This document shows, one piece after another, positions 1,695 to 53,285 of a stretch of DNA of 53,731 nucleotides. A program made the position numbers and the translations under genes. Source of the stretch: a virus (Duplodnaviria; Caudoviricetes); IMG/VR virus record IMGVR_UViG_3300037071_000543, positions 1 to 53,731 of that record; one strand, given 5' to 3'. The notes below the pieces were generated by a model. That model was not told the origin of the DNA and searched no databases. It saw nothing but the letters and a program-made list of their open reading frames with translations. Position 1 is the stretch's first letter; each line of letters begins with the position of its first letter.

Positions 1695-3775
1695 TATTCG
1701 AGCCCCATGTATTTCGGTGAATATTTCGGAGAGTTGATGTCCCACTTCATCTCAGGCGTCGGCCTCCAGATTCCATCTCCGAGGTATTTCTCTTCGAAGG
1801 TTTCGGTGGTCGGAGTCACGGTCGAGGTCGACTTTTCGCGAGCCTCCTTCCGCGCCGCCGCGTCCGCCAGAATGTCGGCGGTCAGCCGCTCCGGGTCGCC
1901 GTGGTCCGGGTCGCCCGTGCCCTCGCCGGGCTGATAGTAGTTCTCGTGGGTCGCGGCGAAATCGATCAGGTTTTCGCCGATCGACTTGCCGCTGAAAAGC
2001 AGTGAGGCGAGTTGCGCGCCGACGCCCGGGAGCCCGAGCGTGCTGGTCATCACGTCGATGCCGGTCGCGGCCACCTGCCCGAATCCGGTTCGCTGGTAGG
2101 GTGGCGCATCCCGAGGTGTCGGCTTTGGAGCCCGCATCGGAAGGGTCGGATCGGTAGGCTCGACAGTCGTCGTCGGTGCCGCTGGCGTGGCTGGCGTGGC
2201 TGGCTCGACACCTGCGGTCGTTGTCGTCGGCCTCGGAGTCGGTGTCGGCACCGTGGTTGCGGCAACATTGACCCCGGCTTCCTCCAATGCGTTTCTCACC
2301 GCCGCTTCGATCGACGCCATCGTGGTCGGGCTGCTTGGGTCCTGCCCTTGCTCGACCGCCGCTTCCGTCGCCCGCTGCCGCGCCGCCGCCTCAATTTCAG
2401 CAGGCGACTGGGTGGGAGTCGTGGCCGCGACTTGGGTCGTGGAGGTCGACGCCTTATCGAGCGTGCCAGCCATCTTGCGGTCGACATAACCCAGCACGGA
2501 GCCGATCGACTTACCACGCATAATCGAACTGTTGGCGGAGACGGCGGCTGCTCCCAGCACGTCGATCGCCCGATCGTCTGGATTGGCGTTATAGGCGGCC
2601 ACCGCGCCCTGCGGCCCGAGGAAGTGCGAGGCATAGAGCGATTCCGGCGTGACCGCGATGCCGTTCTTCTGAAGATTCGCCGCGTTGTCGATGGTGTATT
2701 GCGCCGTCATCGCCCGGGAGATTGTCGGATCGTTGCGGAGGTCGAGCTTTTCCTGCCGGGAGAGGTGGGCCAGCGTCGGATTTACCCGGTCGAACATGCC
2801 CATCCATGTGCCCGAGGTGAATTGCCCAAGCCCGGTGGCGCTCGAATTGGGGTTTTTGGCCCTTGGATTGTTGGCGCTTTCGACGCCGATCATGCGATCG
2901 ACCACGGCATTGAGGAAGGAATCGGTCATGCCGAATTTCCCACCCACATTGAGAATACCGGCTTGGGTCATGCTTTCCGCCGCGCCGCGTCGAGCCACCT
3001 CTGCCTTGTAATCCGACCAGTCTTGCATGCTGGCGTTTTCCATGCCGCGCACCGATGAGGCCTGTTCGGCCCGGCGCGCTGACAGGTCACTGACGGCTTT
3101 CGCCGTGGTGTAGGCGTCCATGCTTTCGTTTTCGAGCGTGCGGCGGGCCTCCGCCATGTTCATTTGGCTCGCCGTCGCGCCACCAAACCCGGAATATCCA
3201 CTGACCGACGCGCGATCGGCGGCCCGTGCTGCCGCTGTCGAGGTGCCAGCGCCCGGGTCGAACCCGGTGGCCGTGCGACTAGCCGCCGCGCGTGTCGTGT
3301 CGCCCGAATATCCAGCGACGGAAGACCGTTCGGAAGCGCGTGCCGCCGAAGCCGCCCCGATCGAGGTGGCCGACGATGAACGGGCTCCACCTGATGCGGA
3401 AGACTTGGCGACCCCCGAGGTGCCGCTCGACTTGCTATCGCCGGAATATCCAGAGACGGAAGCGCGATCGGAGGCACGCGCCGACGCCATCGAGCCGCTG
3501 CTCTTGTTGCTGGTTGAACCGGCATTGCCGCCGCTGCGGGCTCCGCTGGAGGAGGAGCTTGAGGCGCTTTTGCCCGAGCCGCTTAGGCTCTTGCCGCCCG
3601 AGCTTTGCGAGTCAGAGCGCGCGCTGCCGGTGCTGCCAGCCTTCGATGCGCTCGAACTGCTCGAACTCTTGCTCGAACTGGAGCCGCTGTAGCTGGCCGC
3701 ACCCGAGCCGCTTTTCGACTTGCCGCCCGAGCTTGGCGTATCGCCACGGCCCTGATTGCCGGTGCCGTTGTACAT
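1694..3775 (-). CDS. Virion-associated lytic transglycosylase (SLT-like) / ejection protein
   Basis: IGVES-ANNPRAKNPNSSATGLGQFTSGTW (catalytic Glu and GLxQ motif) and YASHFLGPQGA. Ser/Gly-rich N-terminus and Thr/Pro-rich linker. Confidence 0.8.
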   Translation of the reverse strand: MYNGTGNQGRGDTPSSGGKSKSGSGAASYSGSSSSKSSSSSSASKAGSTGSARSDSQSSGGKSLSGSGKSASSSSSSGARSGGNAGSTSNKSSGSMASARASDRASVSGYSGDSKSSGTSGVAKSSASGGARSSSATSIGAASAARASERSSVAGYSGDTTRAAASRTATGFDPGAGTSTAAARAADRASVSGYSGFGGATASQMNMAEARRTLENESMDAYTTAKAVSDLSARRAEQASSVRGMENASMQDWSDYKAEVARRGAAESMTQAGILNVGGKFGMTDSFLNAVVDRMIGVESANNPRAKNPNSSATGLGQFTSGTWMGMFDRVNPTLAHLSRQEKLDLRNDPTISRAMTAQYTIDNAANLQKNGIAVTPESLYASHFLGPQGAVAAYNANPDDRAIDVLGAAAVSANSSIMRGKSIGSVLGYVDRKMAGTLDKASTSTTQVAATTPTQSPAEIEAAARQRATEAAVEQGQDPSSPTTMASIEAAVRNALEEAGVNVAATTVPTPTPRPTTTTAGVEPATPATPAAPTTTVEPTDPTLPMRAPKPTPRDAPPYQRTGFGQVAATGIDVMTSTLGLPGVGAQLASLLFSGKSIGENLIDFAATHENYYQPGEGTGDPDHGDPERLTADILADAAARKEAREKSTSTVTPTTETFEEKYLGDGIWRPTPEMKWDINSPKYSPKYMGLE

Positions 3776-38896: not shown

Positions 38897-39674
38897 TTAC
38901 GAAGCCCGCCAGAACGCCCGCCGCGAGCGACTGGCTGACAAGGCCGAGCGGCTGCGCAAGGAAGCACAGGCCCGGTCCAAGGCGGGCTGGGACGCCCTGC
39001 ACGCCATCCCCTTCGGCCAGCCGATCCTTGTCGGCCACCACTCCGAGCAGCGCGATCGCAACTACCGCAAGCGCGCCATCGGCAACATCGACAAGTCGGT
39101 GATGCTCAACAAGGCCGCAGGCGAGGCCGAGGCCCGCGCCGACAACATGGGTAGCGGCGGAATCTCCAGCGACGACCCGACCGCGATCGACAAGCTCAAG
39201 GCCAAGCTGGCCAAGCTGGAGGCCGAGCAGGCGCAGATGGTCGCCACCAACAAGGCGGTGCGATCCAAGGACCCGACCGCCGCCCTGACCGCGCTGGGCT
39301 TCGGAGCCGCCACGATCGGCGCGCTGCTGACGCCCGACTACGCGGGGCGCAAGGGCATCCCGAGCTACGCCCTCTCGAACGCCAGCGCGGTGATCCGCCA
39401 GACCCGGCAGAGGATCGAGCAACTTGAACGCGAATGCACTCGCGTGCAAGTGGTGACCGAGACCAACATCGGGCTCACGGCGATCGAGAACACCGACGCC
39501 AACCGGGTGCAACTGATCTTCCCCGGCAAGCCCGACGCGGAGACCCGCACCCTGCTGAAGCGATACGGCTTCCGCTGGAGCCCGAGCGAAGGCGCGTGGC
39601 AGCGGCTCCTCAACAACGCGGGCATCTACGCGGCCCGCACCGTGATCGACCACCTCACAGCAAAGGAGACATAA
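38883..39674 (+). CDS. DUF3560 domain protein
   Basis: IPFGQPILVGHHSE, ISSDDP and LKRYGFRWSPSEGAWQR motifs. Confidence 0.85.
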   Translation: MPRSDYEARQNARRERLADKAERLRKEAQARSKAGWDALHAIPFGQPILVGHHSEQRDRNYRKRAIGNIDKSVMLNKAAGEAEARADNMGSGGISSDDPTAIDKLKAKLAKLEAEQAQMVATNKAVRSKDPTAALTALGFGAATIGALLTPDYAGRKGIPSYALSNASAVIRQTRQRIEQLERECTRVQVVTETNIGLTAIENTDANRVQLIFPGKPDAETRTLLKRYGFRWSPSEGAWQRLLNNAGIYAARTVIDHLTAKET

Positions 39675-47223: not shown

Positions 47224-48197
47224 CTGACGCATGGGAATCTTGGCGGAAGCGGCTTGTGGACCCGCGCATTCCGATCACCACCACCCCTGAATGGGGTTTC
47301 TACAAGACCCGCTACGAGAACAAGCCTTGGGAGCCGGTCGCCATCTGGCAGGACGAAAACGGCAAGTGGATCGCGTACCGCTCCGGGAAGGAAGTCGAGA
47401 CCGAGAAGATCGACAAGCTATGGGAGTGGTGCTGCGGTCGACCGATCACGGAAGAGGCCTACGACAAGGCGGTTGAGACCGGCGAGTGGGACGGCGACGA
47501 CCCGACCGTGGCCAGCATGATCGGCCACAATGTCGGTGATATTTCCGATGTCGAGCTTCTGAAGGACCAGATCGAAAACGCCAAGCAGGGAGCCGACGCC
47601 TACCGCAAGATCACGTCCGACGATCAGGCGGCGAAGGCGCAGTCGCTCCGGGCGCGGATGAACGAACTCGCCGGGCTCGCGGACAAAAAGCGCGAGGCGC
47701 TGAAAAAGCCGCACCTTGAGGCCGGGCGGCAGGTGGATGCCGAATGGCAACCGATCATCAAGGACGCCAAGGCGGTCGCTGACGTGCTGCGCAAGGCGAT
47801 CGAGGATCACGAAACGGCGAAGCTGCAAGAGCGCCGCCGCATCGAACGCGAACGGCAGCGGGCAGAGCAGGAGAGATTGGCCGAGGAAGAGCGCGCCCGG
47901 GAGGAAGCGCGCGCCGCCGAAGCCGCAGGACGGACGGTCGTGTTACCCCCGACGCCTGCACCTCTCCCGCCCCCGCTGCCACCGCCAGAGACCAAGGTCA
48001 AGGGCACCTATGGCCGGGCCGCCAATGTCGGCACGGAACTGGTCGTCACCGCCGTCATCGATCAGGACGCGCTCTACCACTTCCTGCGGGAGCATAACGA
48101 CCTGCGGCGGTGCCTGTACGATCTTGCGACCCGGGCGGTGCGGGCCGGGCACAATCCTCCCGGCATCACCTACGAAGAAAGGGCGAAGGTCACATGA
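47220..48197 (+). CDS. Coiled-coil protein of the recombination module
   Basis: PEWGFYK...WEPVAIW, IGHN, KKPHLEAGRQVDAEW, PGITYEE. Confidence 0.6.
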   Translation: MTDAWESWRKRLVDPRIPITTTPEWGFYKTRYENKPWEPVAIWQDENGKWIAYRSGKEVETEKIDKLWEWCCGRPITEEAYDKAVETGEWDGDDPTVASMIGHNVGDISDVELLKDQIENAKQGADAYRKITSDDQAAKAQSLRARMNELAGLADKKREALKKPHLEAGRQVDAEWQPIIKDAKAVADVLRKAIEDHETAKLQERRRIERERQRAEQERLAEEERAREEARAAEAAGRTVVLPPTPAPLPPPLPPPETKVKGTYGRAANVGTELVVTAVIDQDALYHFLREHNDLRRCLYDLATRAVRAGHNPPGITYEERAKVT

Positions 48198-51022: not shown

Positions 51023-51463
51023 ATGGGAATTTTCGGAAAACTTCTTGGCTCCAAGGCCAAGGACGCCGTGCAGAAATTCAGCGGCAACACCGACTTCCTT
51101 GAGGCGCTGTGCGCCGGGTGCGCGCTCACCGCTGCGGCGGAAGGCGGGATCGATGACAAGGAGTTCGACACCACGCTGAAGGTCATTCAGGCCAACAGCG
51201 CGATCGCTGCCGGGTTTTCGACACGCGACATTGAAAGCGCGTTCTCGCGGATGGCCCCGAAGACCGGCACGCGCATGGGCAAGAGCGAACTCAAACGGGA
51301 GATTGAGGAGGCGGTGGCGCGCGACAAGAACATGGGCGAGGCGATCGTGCTGGCCTGCCTCGACGTGGCCGATACGGGCGGCATCAGCCCGGAGGAAGAG
51401 ACGGTGATGAAGACGATCGCCGAAATCTGTCAGGTGAATTACGAAAAGCTGAAGGCCGGTTGA
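51023..51463 (+). CDS. terB: TerB-family (tellurite-resistance-like) protein
   Basis: DFLEALCAGCALTAAAEGGIDDKE...LDVADTGGISPEE. Confidence 0.8.
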   Translation: MGIFGKLLGSKAKDAVQKFSGNTDFLEALCAGCALTAAAEGGIDDKEFDTTLKVIQANSAIAAGFSTRDIESAFSRMAPKTGTRMGKSELKREIEEAVARDKNMGEAIVLACLDVADTGGISPEEETVMKTIAEICQVNYEKLKAG

Positions 51464-51464
51464 A

Positions 51465-51674
51465 ATGAAATTCCAATCCGATCCGCCCCCTGTGACGGAC
51501 AGGGCGCTCGACTGGGCGCGGCAGCGCATTCTCGGGGTCGCCATATCGGCGGCCTCCTTCGTCACGCTGGTCAGCCTGATCGCCCCGGCGTGGCTCGACT
51601 TCCTGCTCGACCTGTCGATGGTCGGGCTGATCGCTCTGGTCGGGAAGCTGGCGAGGAAGAAGGTGCCGAAATGA
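51465..51674 (+). CDS. Two-TM membrane protein
   Basis: Two hydrophobic segments and a basic C-terminus. Confidence 0.6.
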   Translation: MKFQSDPPPVTDRALDWARQRILGVAISAASFVTLVSLIAPAWLDFLLDLSMVGLIALVGKLARKKVPK

Positions 51675-52138
51675 GGTGCAATTTTTGCGACATCATTCTG
51701 AATGCCGACCCGGGCGAAGGCCCAATCGAGAACGGCCAGATTTCACTGTGCGCCAACTGCGGCGAGTGGCATGTGGTCGACGGCCCGGATAGCCTGCGCA
51801 AGCCGACGCCCGAGGAGTACGAGACGATCGTGACCACTCCCGAGTACAAGACCATCCGGGCGATGTGGAGGGTCGTCAACGAAGAGTTGAGTGGGGAGGA
51901 GGCCGGGCTGACATTCCGGGCGGAGTGGGAAGAATACCGGCAAATGGTCTGCAAAAAGCTGGGTCCGAAAGGGCAGCGGTATGTCAATGACGCCTTCTAT
52001 GCGGGCGCTATCAGCCTGCTAAAGTGCCTGAAGGACACCGCGAACGGGGCCACCGCCAGAGATGACAAGTTCGACGCCTTCAAAGGATTGCACGCGGAAC
52101 TGGCGGCCTACATCGAGTTCAGGAGGATCAATCGATGA
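51671..52138 (+). CDS. Zn-ribbon hypothetical protein
   Basis: CNFC...CANCG; AFYAGA. Confidence 0.6.
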   Translation: MRCNFCDIILNADPGEGPIENGQISLCANCGEWHVVDGPDSLRKPTPEEYETIVTTPEYKTIRAMWRVVNEELSGEEAGLTFRAEWEEYRQMVCKKLGPKGQRYVNDAFYAGAISLLKCLKDTANGATARDDKFDAFKGLHAELAAYIEFRRINR

Positions 52139-52488
52139 GCTTGGAAGAATCCGACGCGGCTGCTGCCGCCGTCCAGAAAACGCCGAACCGGGTGACCCTC
52201 GACTACATCAGGTCACGGATCGCCTACGAGCATGTCTACACGCTCGACACGGCGGGCGACGAAGCCCGGTGGCCGAATGACTTCAACCCGTGGGTCCATA
52301 CCTGCTGCGCGATGGTCCTGAAAAACGGATTCGTCGTGTTCGGCCACTCCGCGCCCGCCGACCCGGAGAACTACAACGCGGAGCTTGGCGCGAAATTCGC
52401 CCGGGAGGATTGCATCCGGCAGATATGGAAGCTGGAGGCCTACCTGCTGCGCGAGCAGATGATGGATCAAGGGGCGTCCAATGACTGA
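52135..52488 (+). CDS. tad1: Gp49/Phage_gp49_66 (Tad1-like) anti-defence sponge
   Basis: RVTLDYI...TCCAMVLKNGFVVFGHSAPADPENYNAELG...IWKLEAYLL. Confidence 0.8.
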   Translation: MSLEESDAAAAAVQKTPNRVTLDYIRSRIAYEHVYTLDTAGDEARWPNDFNPWVHTCCAMVLKNGFVVFGHSAPADPENYNAELGAKFAREDCIRQIWKLEAYLLREQMMDQGASND

Positions 52489-52684
52489 CCGGATGCTTCA
52501 GTTTTTCGCCCATAACGACATGCCGGACAATGAGATGGACGTGGCGATCCAGTTCGACACGCTGGCCCATCAGGTCGTCAAGAACCTGCCACGCACGCCC
52601 GAGCGCACGGTCTGCCTGCGCAAGCTGCTTGAGGCGAGGGATTGCGCGCTGCGCTGCCTGATCGAGGACCAGCATGTCGGGTGA
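52481..52684 (+). CDS. Helical-hairpin protein, possibly Acb2-like sponge
   Basis: LQFFAH...LAHQVVKNLPRTPERTVCLRKLLEARDCALR. Confidence 0.5.
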   Translation: MTDRMLQFFAHNDMPDNEMDVAIQFDTLAHQVVKNLPRTPERTVCLRKLLEARDCALRCLIEDQHVG

Positions 52685-52928
52685 TGAATACCGCGCGGTC
52701 ACCGCGACGGTCTTGCGAGTAAGCCCCAACTCGTTCGAAATCCGCACGCCTCCGACCCGGATTGAAAGCCGGACGCCGGGGGCGCGCACCGCGATTCCGC
52801 GATCGCTGATCCACGGGGCGGACGATCGCTACATCGAGACCATGCTGCCGCGCGGCGCGGTCGAGCCGTTCGAGTGGACGTTCCGGCTGGTCGAGTGGAA
52901 GGCCGAGCAACTGGGGCTGGCCGGATAA
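52674..52928 (+). CDS. Hypothetical protein
   Basis: AIPRSLI...EWKAEQLGL. Confidence 0.55.
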   Translation: MSGDEYRAVTATVLRVSPNSFEIRTPPTRIESRTPGARTAIPRSLIHGADDRYIETMLPRGAVEPFEWTFRLVEWKAEQLGLAG

Positions 52929-53285
52929 ATGGGCATCGTCTCAAAGCGCCTCCGCGATTCCGCCAAGGGCCGCGACTGCACCTTGCGCTTTGACTGCTGC
53001 AACTTCCTGCCGGAAACGACCGTGCTGGCCCACCTGCCGAGCCCCGTGGGAGGCGTTGCGACCAAGGGCGATGATTGGCATGCGGTGTTCGCTTGCGCCG
53101 CCTGCCATGCCGCGCTGGACGAAAGCCGCTACCTCAACGCCACGGCTGGCTATGCCCTGCGTGCCCTGCAAAGAACGCAGGCGATTTGGGTCGCGGAAGG
53201 ATTGCTTGTCGTCGCGGGCGATCGCGAGCCCAAGCCGCGCCCGACCACCTCCAAGAACCTGCCACCAAAGAGGCTGTTCAAATGA
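52929..53285 (+). CDS. DUF1364/YbcO-family HNH-like nuclease
   Basis: LRDSAKGRDCTLR...CNFLPETTVLAH...KGDD...FACAACH..LD. Confidence 0.85.
   Translation: MGIVSKRLRDSAKGRDCTLRFDCCNFLPETTVLAHLPSPVGGVATKGDDWHAVFACAACHAALDESRYLNATAGYALRALQRTQAIWVAEGLLVVAGDREPKPRPTTSKNLPPKRLFK

Follow-up and report, generated by a model that had tools for sequence, protein, structure and literature searches.

The question raised by the virus record IMGVR_UViG_3300037071_000543 (Duplodnaviria; Caudoviricetes) is what is encoded by two short overlapping genes, called A and B here, and whether they act against host defence together or independently. The window, that is, the whole stretch of DNA that was analysed, is the linear whole IMG/VR virus record of 53,731 bases, for which a completeness of 72% has been estimated (CheckV). 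In the preliminary description, A was taken for a Tad1-like sponge of the Gp49 family, and the small helix-Pro-helix protein B was taken for a possible Acb2-like hairpin sponge or a partner of A. In our study both open reading frames (ORFs) and their overlap of 8 nucleotides (nt) were found as described, and the pair is best read as an anti-defence cassette which combines a known sponge with an independent candidate sponge-like protein. The features of the pair are as follows.

52135..52488, plus strand: gene A, 117 amino acids (aa), Acb4-family, predicted cyclic-dinucleotide sponge (PF13876, phrog_322, AlphaFold2 (AF2) model and Foldseek).
52481..52684, plus strand: gene B, 67 aa, unnamed helical-hairpin family, predicted homodimer, candidate anti-defence sponge.
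52481..52488, plus strand: overlap of A and B, 8 nt, ATGACTGA, with the start codon of B inside the end of A, as read from the sequence.
52469..52474, plus strand: AAGGGG, a Shine-Dalgarno-like site 6 nt ahead of the ATG of B, its function being presumed from the sequence.

Translational coupling of B to A through the 8-nt overlap is proposed. A metagenome contig of 1,079 bases (L313) is 96.8% identical to 52112-53191 of the window and keeps the order A, B, the following ORF C and a YbcO-type nuclease gene. Gene A differs from this contig at 7 bases, all seven at third codon positions and with 0 residue changes; B differs at 6 bases, four of them at third codon positions, with 2 residue changes; and ORF C differs at 15 bases, with 10 of the 15 at third codon positions. 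These patterns of base differences show A, B and C to be coding sequences under purifying selection.

Assignment of gene A

Gene A is very probably a new member of the Acb4 family. Its protein matches the Pfam family PF13876 (Phage_gp49_66) at E 3.4e-21, with 76 bits against a cut-off of 27 and over model positions 1-81 of 82; the same match was found at 52192-52458 in a six-frame search of the record, phrog_322 is matched at E 1.1e-29, and no NCBIfam family is matched. PF13876 corresponds to the Acb4 family, the founder of which is gp1.3 (Acb4) of phage SPO1 and for which 1,331 homologs are given (Chang et al. 2024, PMC11722364). The SPO1 protein is described in the same paper as a tetrameric sponge for 3'3'-cGAMP, a cyclic GMP-AMP, and related signals of the cyclic oligonucleotide-based antiphage signalling system (CBASS), and eight of the eight homologs tested there bound 3'3'-cGAMP. 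Relatives of A are present in 752 GenBank phage records, including that of phage N4 at 36.8% identity.

The structural analysis points to the same family. The AF2 model of A, built on an alignment of 6 sequences, has a predicted local distance difference test score (pLDDT) of 76 and contains helices at residues 3-12, 22-27 and 82-115 and strands at residues 29-38, 54-62 and 67-72, which agrees with the SPO1 Acb4 fold of three antiparallel strands, N-terminal helices and a long C-terminal helix. The first ten Foldseek matches of this model are all chains of 9e4w (SPO1 Acb4 with 3'3'-cGAMP) with a probability of 1.00, an E value of 4.9e-3 to 1.1e-2 and a template modelling (TM) score by target of 0.62-0.70, none of them reaching E <= 1e-3. 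A sequence search of the PDB with A at E <= 10 also returned Acb4 9e4w at E 0.32, along with an AROM protein and SurA, and no Tad1 chain was among these matches.

The earlier label of a 'Tad1-like sponge' thus holds for the membership in a family of nucleotide-signal sponges and fails for Tad1. The likeness of A to Tad1 extends to the general idea alone of a small phage protein from a sponge family, whereas PF24729 (the Acb2/Tad1 hairpin) is not matched in A, a Pfam scan at E <= 1 gives PF13876 alone, and the fold of A matches that of Acb4, which is reported to have no structural homology to Acb2, Tad1 or Tad2 (PMC11722364). Our literature search also returned no paper pairing 'Gp49' with 'Tad1'. 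Hence, A adds an unexceptional new member to a sponge family already published, and the correction of its label matters for annotation because PF13876 denotes Acb4 and not Tad1.

By analogy with the SPO1 protein, A may bind cyclic dinucleotides such as 3'3'-cGAMP as a tetramer. The likeness between the two consists of the PF13876 match, a predicted strand core flanked by helices and 9e4w as top structural match, whereas the sequences are only ~20% identical and the ligand contacts are partly altered. In the alignment of A with SPO1 gp1.3 and the N4 homolog, the ten SPO1 ligand-contact positions are K36, F48, E49, V56, Y57, F62, N63, I66, T70 and K81. Three of the ten (F48, N63 and K81) are identical in A, where they are F66, N81 and K99, and two more are conservatively changed (F62 to Y80 and I66 to L84). 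The other five count against the predicted binding, as E49 is replaced by V, V56 by P, Y57 by A and T70 by F, and K36 falls in a gap. The N4 homolog also departs from SPO1 at several of the ligand-contact positions. The motif difference noticed in the preliminary description was borne out: SAPADP is found in A and in four of the five aligned relatives, and SACVDP in the N4 homolog. Owing to this variation in the ligand residues and to the motif difference from N4, the ligand specificity of A is not readable from its sequence.

Two variations of the family were seen at the sequence level. A 12-residue insertion at residues ~39-50 of A (window 52249-52284), which separates the N-terminal helices from the first strand, is missing from the five nearest relatives and is modelled with low confidence (mean pLDDT 51 over residues 41-50). 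Further, an Acb4 homolog at 2489-3070 of locus L094 (the contig being the same as L110), which shares 55% identity with A, is extended at its C-terminus by ~90 residues; Acb4 homologs with such C-terminal extensions are mentioned in PMC11722364.

Gene B is a conserved helical hairpin

Gene B is the more interesting part of the locus, as it belongs to a very large and strongly conserved family of ~65 aa which has no name and is repeatedly codon-coupled to known sponge genes. B matches phrog_5120 (E 2e-15) and phrog_1761 (E 5.6e-14), both of unknown function, and has no Pfam, NCBIfam or named PHROG match; the family is called unnamed here in the sense of these Pfam, NCBIfam and PHROG lookups, which is not a claim of its being unpublished. 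All 82 candidates of a word-index search with B were at E <= 1e-3, and by exhaustive profile search the family comprises 6,900 representative clusters (50% identity) at E <= 1e-3 and 4,663 at E <= 1e-10. By tblastn, B was found in 176 GenBank phage records (Erwinia 48, Acinetobacter 45, Gordonia 26, Vibrio 16, Brevibacterium 11, Mycobacterium 7, and others). The homologs come from phages of Proteobacteria, Actinobacteria and Cyanobacteria with 32-49% identity over 67 aa, and the 11 annotations inspected were all hypothetical, bar one labelled anti-TRAP domain protein. In 37 aligned B sequences eleven residues are invariant, namely F9, P37, E41, L46, R47, K48, L49, L50, E51, D54 and R58. B is a conserved real gene and not a chance ORF. 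A PDB sequence search with B alone returned only leucine-rich repeat fragments of NLRP1, at E 0.45.

The helix-Pro-helix architecture expected for B was recovered in its AF2 model, which has a mean pLDDT of 94.5 and shows a short helix at residues 4-9, followed by a helix at residues 16-35, a Pro-containing turn and a helix at residues 40-66. When four copies of B were modelled together, scores of 0.71, 0.71 and 0.73 were obtained against 0.02 for the best control, with a pLDDT of 81 for the partner chains, and the runs share at least 82% of their contacts. In the two-copy calibration of these complex models, 20 of 30 solved pairs and 1 of 23 single chains attained the mark. The confident contacts run between two copies over residues 20-60 and include the like pairs 28:28, 48:48, 49:49 and 52:52 and the crossed pair 45:56. 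On the basis of this model, B is confidently predicted to pair as a two-fold antiparallel symmetric dimer. Residues Q7, F8, F9, H13 and D54 lie outside the confident modelled interface and may be free for ligand or higher-order contacts.

Longer natural forms of the family were also studied. Two full copies of B occur in tandem in the proteins P0204, P0205, P0207, P0212, P0296 and P0351, and such proteins fit the dimer as the basic unit. P0203 was seen to hold two B copies and a fragment. No sponge domain came up when 52 longer B proteins were scanned with Pfam, the matches being PGDYG once and DUF7323 once. In two phage sequences the B homolog stands at the end of a longer frame: at the C-terminus of a 132-aa ORF in G051 (L061 2797-3195), and as the C-terminal part of a 150-aa protein of Erwinia phage pEa_SNUABM_23 (L006 1734-2186). 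The N-terminal parts of both, which belong to no identified family, may be real extensions or wrongly called starts.

Gene B as a candidate sponge

We tentatively prefer to read B as a small anti-defence protein which forms homo-oligomers, acts independently and most likely serves as a sponge for a second nucleotide signal, its gene being codon-coupled behind that of A. The genomic company of B speaks for this reading. A Tad2 gene (PF11195) scores above the cut-off in 5 of the 129 B-carrying IMG/VR records (80 + 49), and in four of the five it is found at most 1.6 kb from B (P ~9e-4 under uniform placement, or 1.5e-3 without the short fragment G065):

G065 (locus L075): the Tad2 gene starts in the stop codon of B, with a 4-nt ATGA.
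G170 (locus L214): the first 8 nt of B overlap the end of the Tad2 gene, ATGAGTAA, which is the same layout as that of A and B.
G017: Tad2 gene 1.56 kb from B, in the same gene string.
G131: Tad2 gene 1.4 kb from B, on the opposite strand.
G051: Tad2 gene 16 kb from B.

Genes of the PF24729 family were also observed in B-carrying records, one with 33 bits lying 1.07 kb upstream of B in G051, and relatives with 20 bits at 2.3 kb from B in G178 and with 41 bits at 13.7 kb from B in G174. Known sponge genes cluster with each other, and this bears on the position of B near sponges: Tad2 is present in 3 of 50 Acb4 records, N4 among them, and each time at most 0.8 kb from the Acb4 gene, and Acb4-Tad2 fusions are described as frequent and Acb4-Sequestin fusions are described as well (Tal et al. 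2025, PMC12265669). In N4 itself (L099 1498-2351), a two-sponge cassette is seen in which the PF13876 gene (tag gp48, annotated hypothetical) is directly followed by a gene of the DUF2829/Tad2 family (gp49). The remaining surroundings of B are diverse. Its neighbours include no recurrent family, the commonest being found in 5 of 80 loci, and its homologs are found flanked by terminase subunits, in the midst of head genes, or with a MazG-like gene on one side and a deoxynucleoside monophosphate (dNMP) kinase on the other; such unrelated positions, together with the lack of a recurrent neighbour, are typical of accessory genes.

In the mechanism that we propose, tetramers of A would soak up the CBASS cyclic dinucleotides (3'3'-cGAMP), and the host effector would never be switched on. 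B would be translated by coupling to A and would act independently of it. The 67-aa hairpin of B would pair into the symmetric antiparallel dimer, forming a four-helix bundle, in which the charged residues E41, R42, R47, K48, E51, D54 and R58 and the N-terminal aromatics F8 and F9 may line pockets in which a second immune signal of nucleotide type is sequestered. Such an activity of B would widen the set of defences which the phage can blunt. Nucleotide binding by A or by B, the identity of the ligands and the effect on defence are what we infer here.

Among the known sponges, the outline of B is like that of Sequestin or Acb2, and it is not a demonstrable member of either. Sequestin is described by Tal et al. 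2025 (PMC12265669) as a helical antiparallel homodimer (modelled) of 60-80 aa with pockets at its interface, which stands alone in most phages, and it was discovered because no other family is fused to Acb4 and Tad2 as often. B is similar in size, in helicity, in its modelled antiparallel dimer and in its position beside Acb4 or Tad2. It differs in having no PF21825 (Sequestin, crAss001_48) match, either in B or in the whole record at E <= 10 (positive control T4, 67 bits), and PF21825 was also found in 0 of 80 B-carrying records. With Acb2 (T4 Vs.4, PaMx33 Acb2 and 9ptq), B shares a length below 100 aa and two long antiparallel helices with a Pro-containing turn, an arrangement which is generic, as well as the conserved second-helix pattern L-x-E-A ... 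A-x-R-A, aromatics near the N-terminus and accessory positions in phages. It differs from Acb2 in failing the PF24729 and profile-profile tests, in its modelled dimer and in having no reliable alignment to the Acb2 ligand residues.

A number of observations, including the missing PF21825 match, weigh against B being a sponge. The first of them concern its company: PF13876 was found in 0 of the 129 B-carrying records, with the positive controls (window and SPO1) passed; 124 of the 129 are without a Tad2 gene, so that most B genes are not beside a known sponge; and the uniform-placement null used for the P value of the Tad2 genes ignores the clustering of accessory genes, four families having been tried. 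Neither PF13876 nor PF11195 was found fused to B among the 120 longer forms listed, which also sets B apart from Sequestin. The preliminary description had called for oligomer modelling and for a structural comparison with Acb2 and Tad1. The former, carried to four copies as against the six of a hexamer, gave the confident symmetric dimer and near-absent contacts between dimers, residues 44 and 47 alone touching a further copy, unlike the Acb2 hexamer. The latter came out negative, as Foldseek with the B monomer returned nothing from the PDB at E <= 1e-3 (best 0.75), and the best matches of A were to Acb4; a wide VIA-align search with the B monomer gave a best Z of 7.3, all matches being generic helical proteins and no sponge. 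These monomer fold searches are uninformative because B is a 67-aa hairpin.

The comparisons with Acb2 at the profile level belong to the same side. PF24729 (Acb2_Tad1_hairpin), the gathering score of which is 27 bits and which gives 71 bits for the control T4 Vs.4, is not matched on B by Pfam scan or by six-frame search; among the B members it was matched by 0 of 37 and then by 2 of 143, with scores no better than noise (best E 0.17). Profile-profile alignment (hhalign) of the 37-sequence B profile, A1, with 28 T4-type Acb2 sequences gave a probability of 0.5%, and alignment of the B profile with a bona fide PF24729 protein of a B-carrying contig gave 0.1% and with a PF24729-like ORF in L227 (21 bits, sub-threshold) 3.3%. 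A PDB match of profile A1 to an Acb2 homolog, considered below, was lost with the larger B profile. The failure of B in these profile tests is weak evidence, since a co-resident PF24729 member (34 bits) itself fails to recover any Acb2 chain when the PDB is searched with phmmer.

Seven characterised sponge families are counted in the October 2026 review of Zheng and Zhang (2026, PMC13712596), to which a B protein sequestering an immune signal would be a major addition, and thousands of phage ORFs would gain a function. It is possible, though we would not expect it, that the B family as a whole is a further widespread family of phage immune-signal sponges, either an eighth one or a deep dimeric branch of the Acb2/Tad1-hairpin superfamily, with a nucleotide signal bound in pockets of its invariant basic, acidic and aromatic residues. 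In that case its modular pairing with Acb4 or Tad2 through overlapping codons would let a phage cover several defence systems from one transcript.

Alternative explanations for gene B

The strongest alternative, itself rather doubtful, is that B is a small protein which binds and inhibits or regulates a host protein of high conservation, or which blocks a defence effector directly, and that its sponge neighbours reflect only the general clustering of accessory and anti-defence genes. Small helical dimers are common among phage inhibitors. The unusually high conservation of B across phages of distant phyla would suit such a role, as would the location of many of the eleven invariant residues in the modelled dimer interface and the lack of a recurrent neighbour gene. 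On the other hand, a sponge would also agree with the co-location with Tad2, including overlapping codons, and with the conserved basic residues.

The ClpA N-domain forms of B could be taken to point to a host target as well. Of the 120 longer forms listed, ~22 carry PF02861 (Clp_N), including P0395, P0402, P0403, P0406, P0412, P0416 and P0421. In the nine that were mapped with the B profile, ClpA residues ~4-145 are followed by a short linker and a complete C-terminal B domain, and the ClpA part is 81-89% identical to the ordinary ClpA of Pseudolabrys and other Xanthobacteraceae genomes. When such a protein was searched against genomes, the matches in all of the best 80 loci (L233-L312) ended at residue 153-161 and covered the ClpA part only. 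The fusion was found neither in these 80 nor in the best 80 viral loci, where the B part alone was matched. These forms may have arisen where a prophage integrated in clpA, through chimeric gene calling or as true fusions, and in the first two cases there would be no functional link. Because the fusion was found in neither of these sets of viral and genome loci, it was not used as evidence of B function.

An unlikely explanation is that B serves something other than host defence, such as DNA metabolism or packaging, and stands beside A by chance. The neighbours in the window are recombination genes (exonuclease-like, RecT-like, NinB/Orf and YbcO), and the homologs near terminase, head, MazG-like and dNMP kinase genes would agree with such a role. 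The variety of these positions argues against any one housekeeping role, and the co-location with Tad2 under the uniform null speaks against it too.

It is also quite unlikely that B is a very divergent member of the Acb2/Tad1-hairpin family, forming an Acb2-like hexamer which binds cyclic di- or trinucleotides or 3' cyclic ADP-ribose (3'cADPR). Several leads point in this direction. Acb2 homolog 43 (9ptq) is the second-best match of profile A1 against the PDB (E 0.18), and residues 18-60 are aligned with 16-58 of 76, on the turn and second helix. PF24729 falls exactly on the B homolog of Vibrio phage martha (record E 0.0035, HMM, that is, hidden Markov model, positions 20-55; 1 of 8 phage records) and on that of G176 (E 0.0065, HMM 21-56; 1 of 49 records), and in direct Pfam scans it is the sole family match on these two homologs in the same register, at E 0.057 and 0.075. 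In the ESM Atlas, the nearest cluster to B has a score of 0.96 with PF24729 in 18% of its members, 22 of the 30 feature matches of B are in the PF24729 set, and a cluster which is 79% PF24729 has a TM score of 0.79; these are leads only. The natural two-copy forms would also fit a dimer-built assembly, as three dimers make up Acb2 according to Zheng and Zhang (2026, PMC13712596, Table 1).

Against this stands the fact that every match is below the accepted thresholds, the best PF24729 scores on any B homolog being 13.7 and 14.1 bits. Nothing significant emerged when B proteins and 120 T4-type Acb2 proteins were searched against each other by HMM in both directions, none of 80 records has a PF24729 match at B even with the limit at E <= 10, and in the four-copy model the dimers hardly touch one another. 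That B is homologous to Acb2 is hence not established, and the pattern of the turn and second helix is consistent with either remote homology or convergence. The earlier proposal of an Acb2-like hairpin sponge survives in the hairpin protomer, the modelled self-association, the sponge-gene neighbours and the sub-threshold PF24729 and Acb2 homolog 43 matches in one register; its Acb2 part finds no significant match. The B family may already be among the 4,204 Acb2 homologs listed by Hadary et al. 2025 (10.1101/2025.08.24.671296).

Two other PF24729 matches were noted. A 13.7-bit match at 47601-47732 of the window, inside a 325-aa ORF, was taken as chance because the control matched 11 of 14 genomes. 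In G134, a 15-bit match on the minus strand (38953-39057), inside a 212-aa open frame, lies opposite the B homolog (plus strand, 38983-39159) and is probably an antisense shadow in high-GC DNA.

That B is an obligate partner or subunit of A in a hetero-complex, as the preliminary description had suggested, is very improbable: the stop-start overlap, the Shine-Dalgarno-like site and the A-B order kept in L313 would suit it, whereas B-carrying records hold no PF13876 gene (0/129), B is absent within 3 kb of the Acb4 gene in 54 of 54 Acb4 loci and from three of three more distant metagenome relatives of A, B homologs are coupled likewise to Tad2 genes instead, and the SPO1 Acb4 homotetramer is reported to work alone (PMC11722364).

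Surroundings of the locus

The genes on both sides of the pair are given below.

51023-51463: TerB-like protein, two genes upstream of A (PF05099, 24.9 bits against a cut-off of 24.4; phrog_632 'tellurite resistance', E 1.7e-23).
51590..52138, plus strand: upstream ORF, 182 aa, function unknown; its stop overlaps the start of A (ATGA), in the same coupled chain.
52674..52928, plus strand: ORF C, 84 aa, function unknown; its first 11 nt overlap the end of B.
52929-53285, directly after ORF C: YbcO/HNH-type nuclease gene (PF07102, E 4.3e-20; phrog_131).

The 182-aa ORF has no Pfam or NCBIfam match and a weak PHROG match only (E 0.02), and ORF C has no Pfam, PHROG or NCBIfam family and no usable ESM Atlas feature match. 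Upstream of A, an exonuclease-like gene, a RecT-like annealing protein, a NinB/Orf-like gene and the TerB-like gene are present, and the A/B locus lies in an early region of recombination genes (nin-like), the phage being of temperate type.

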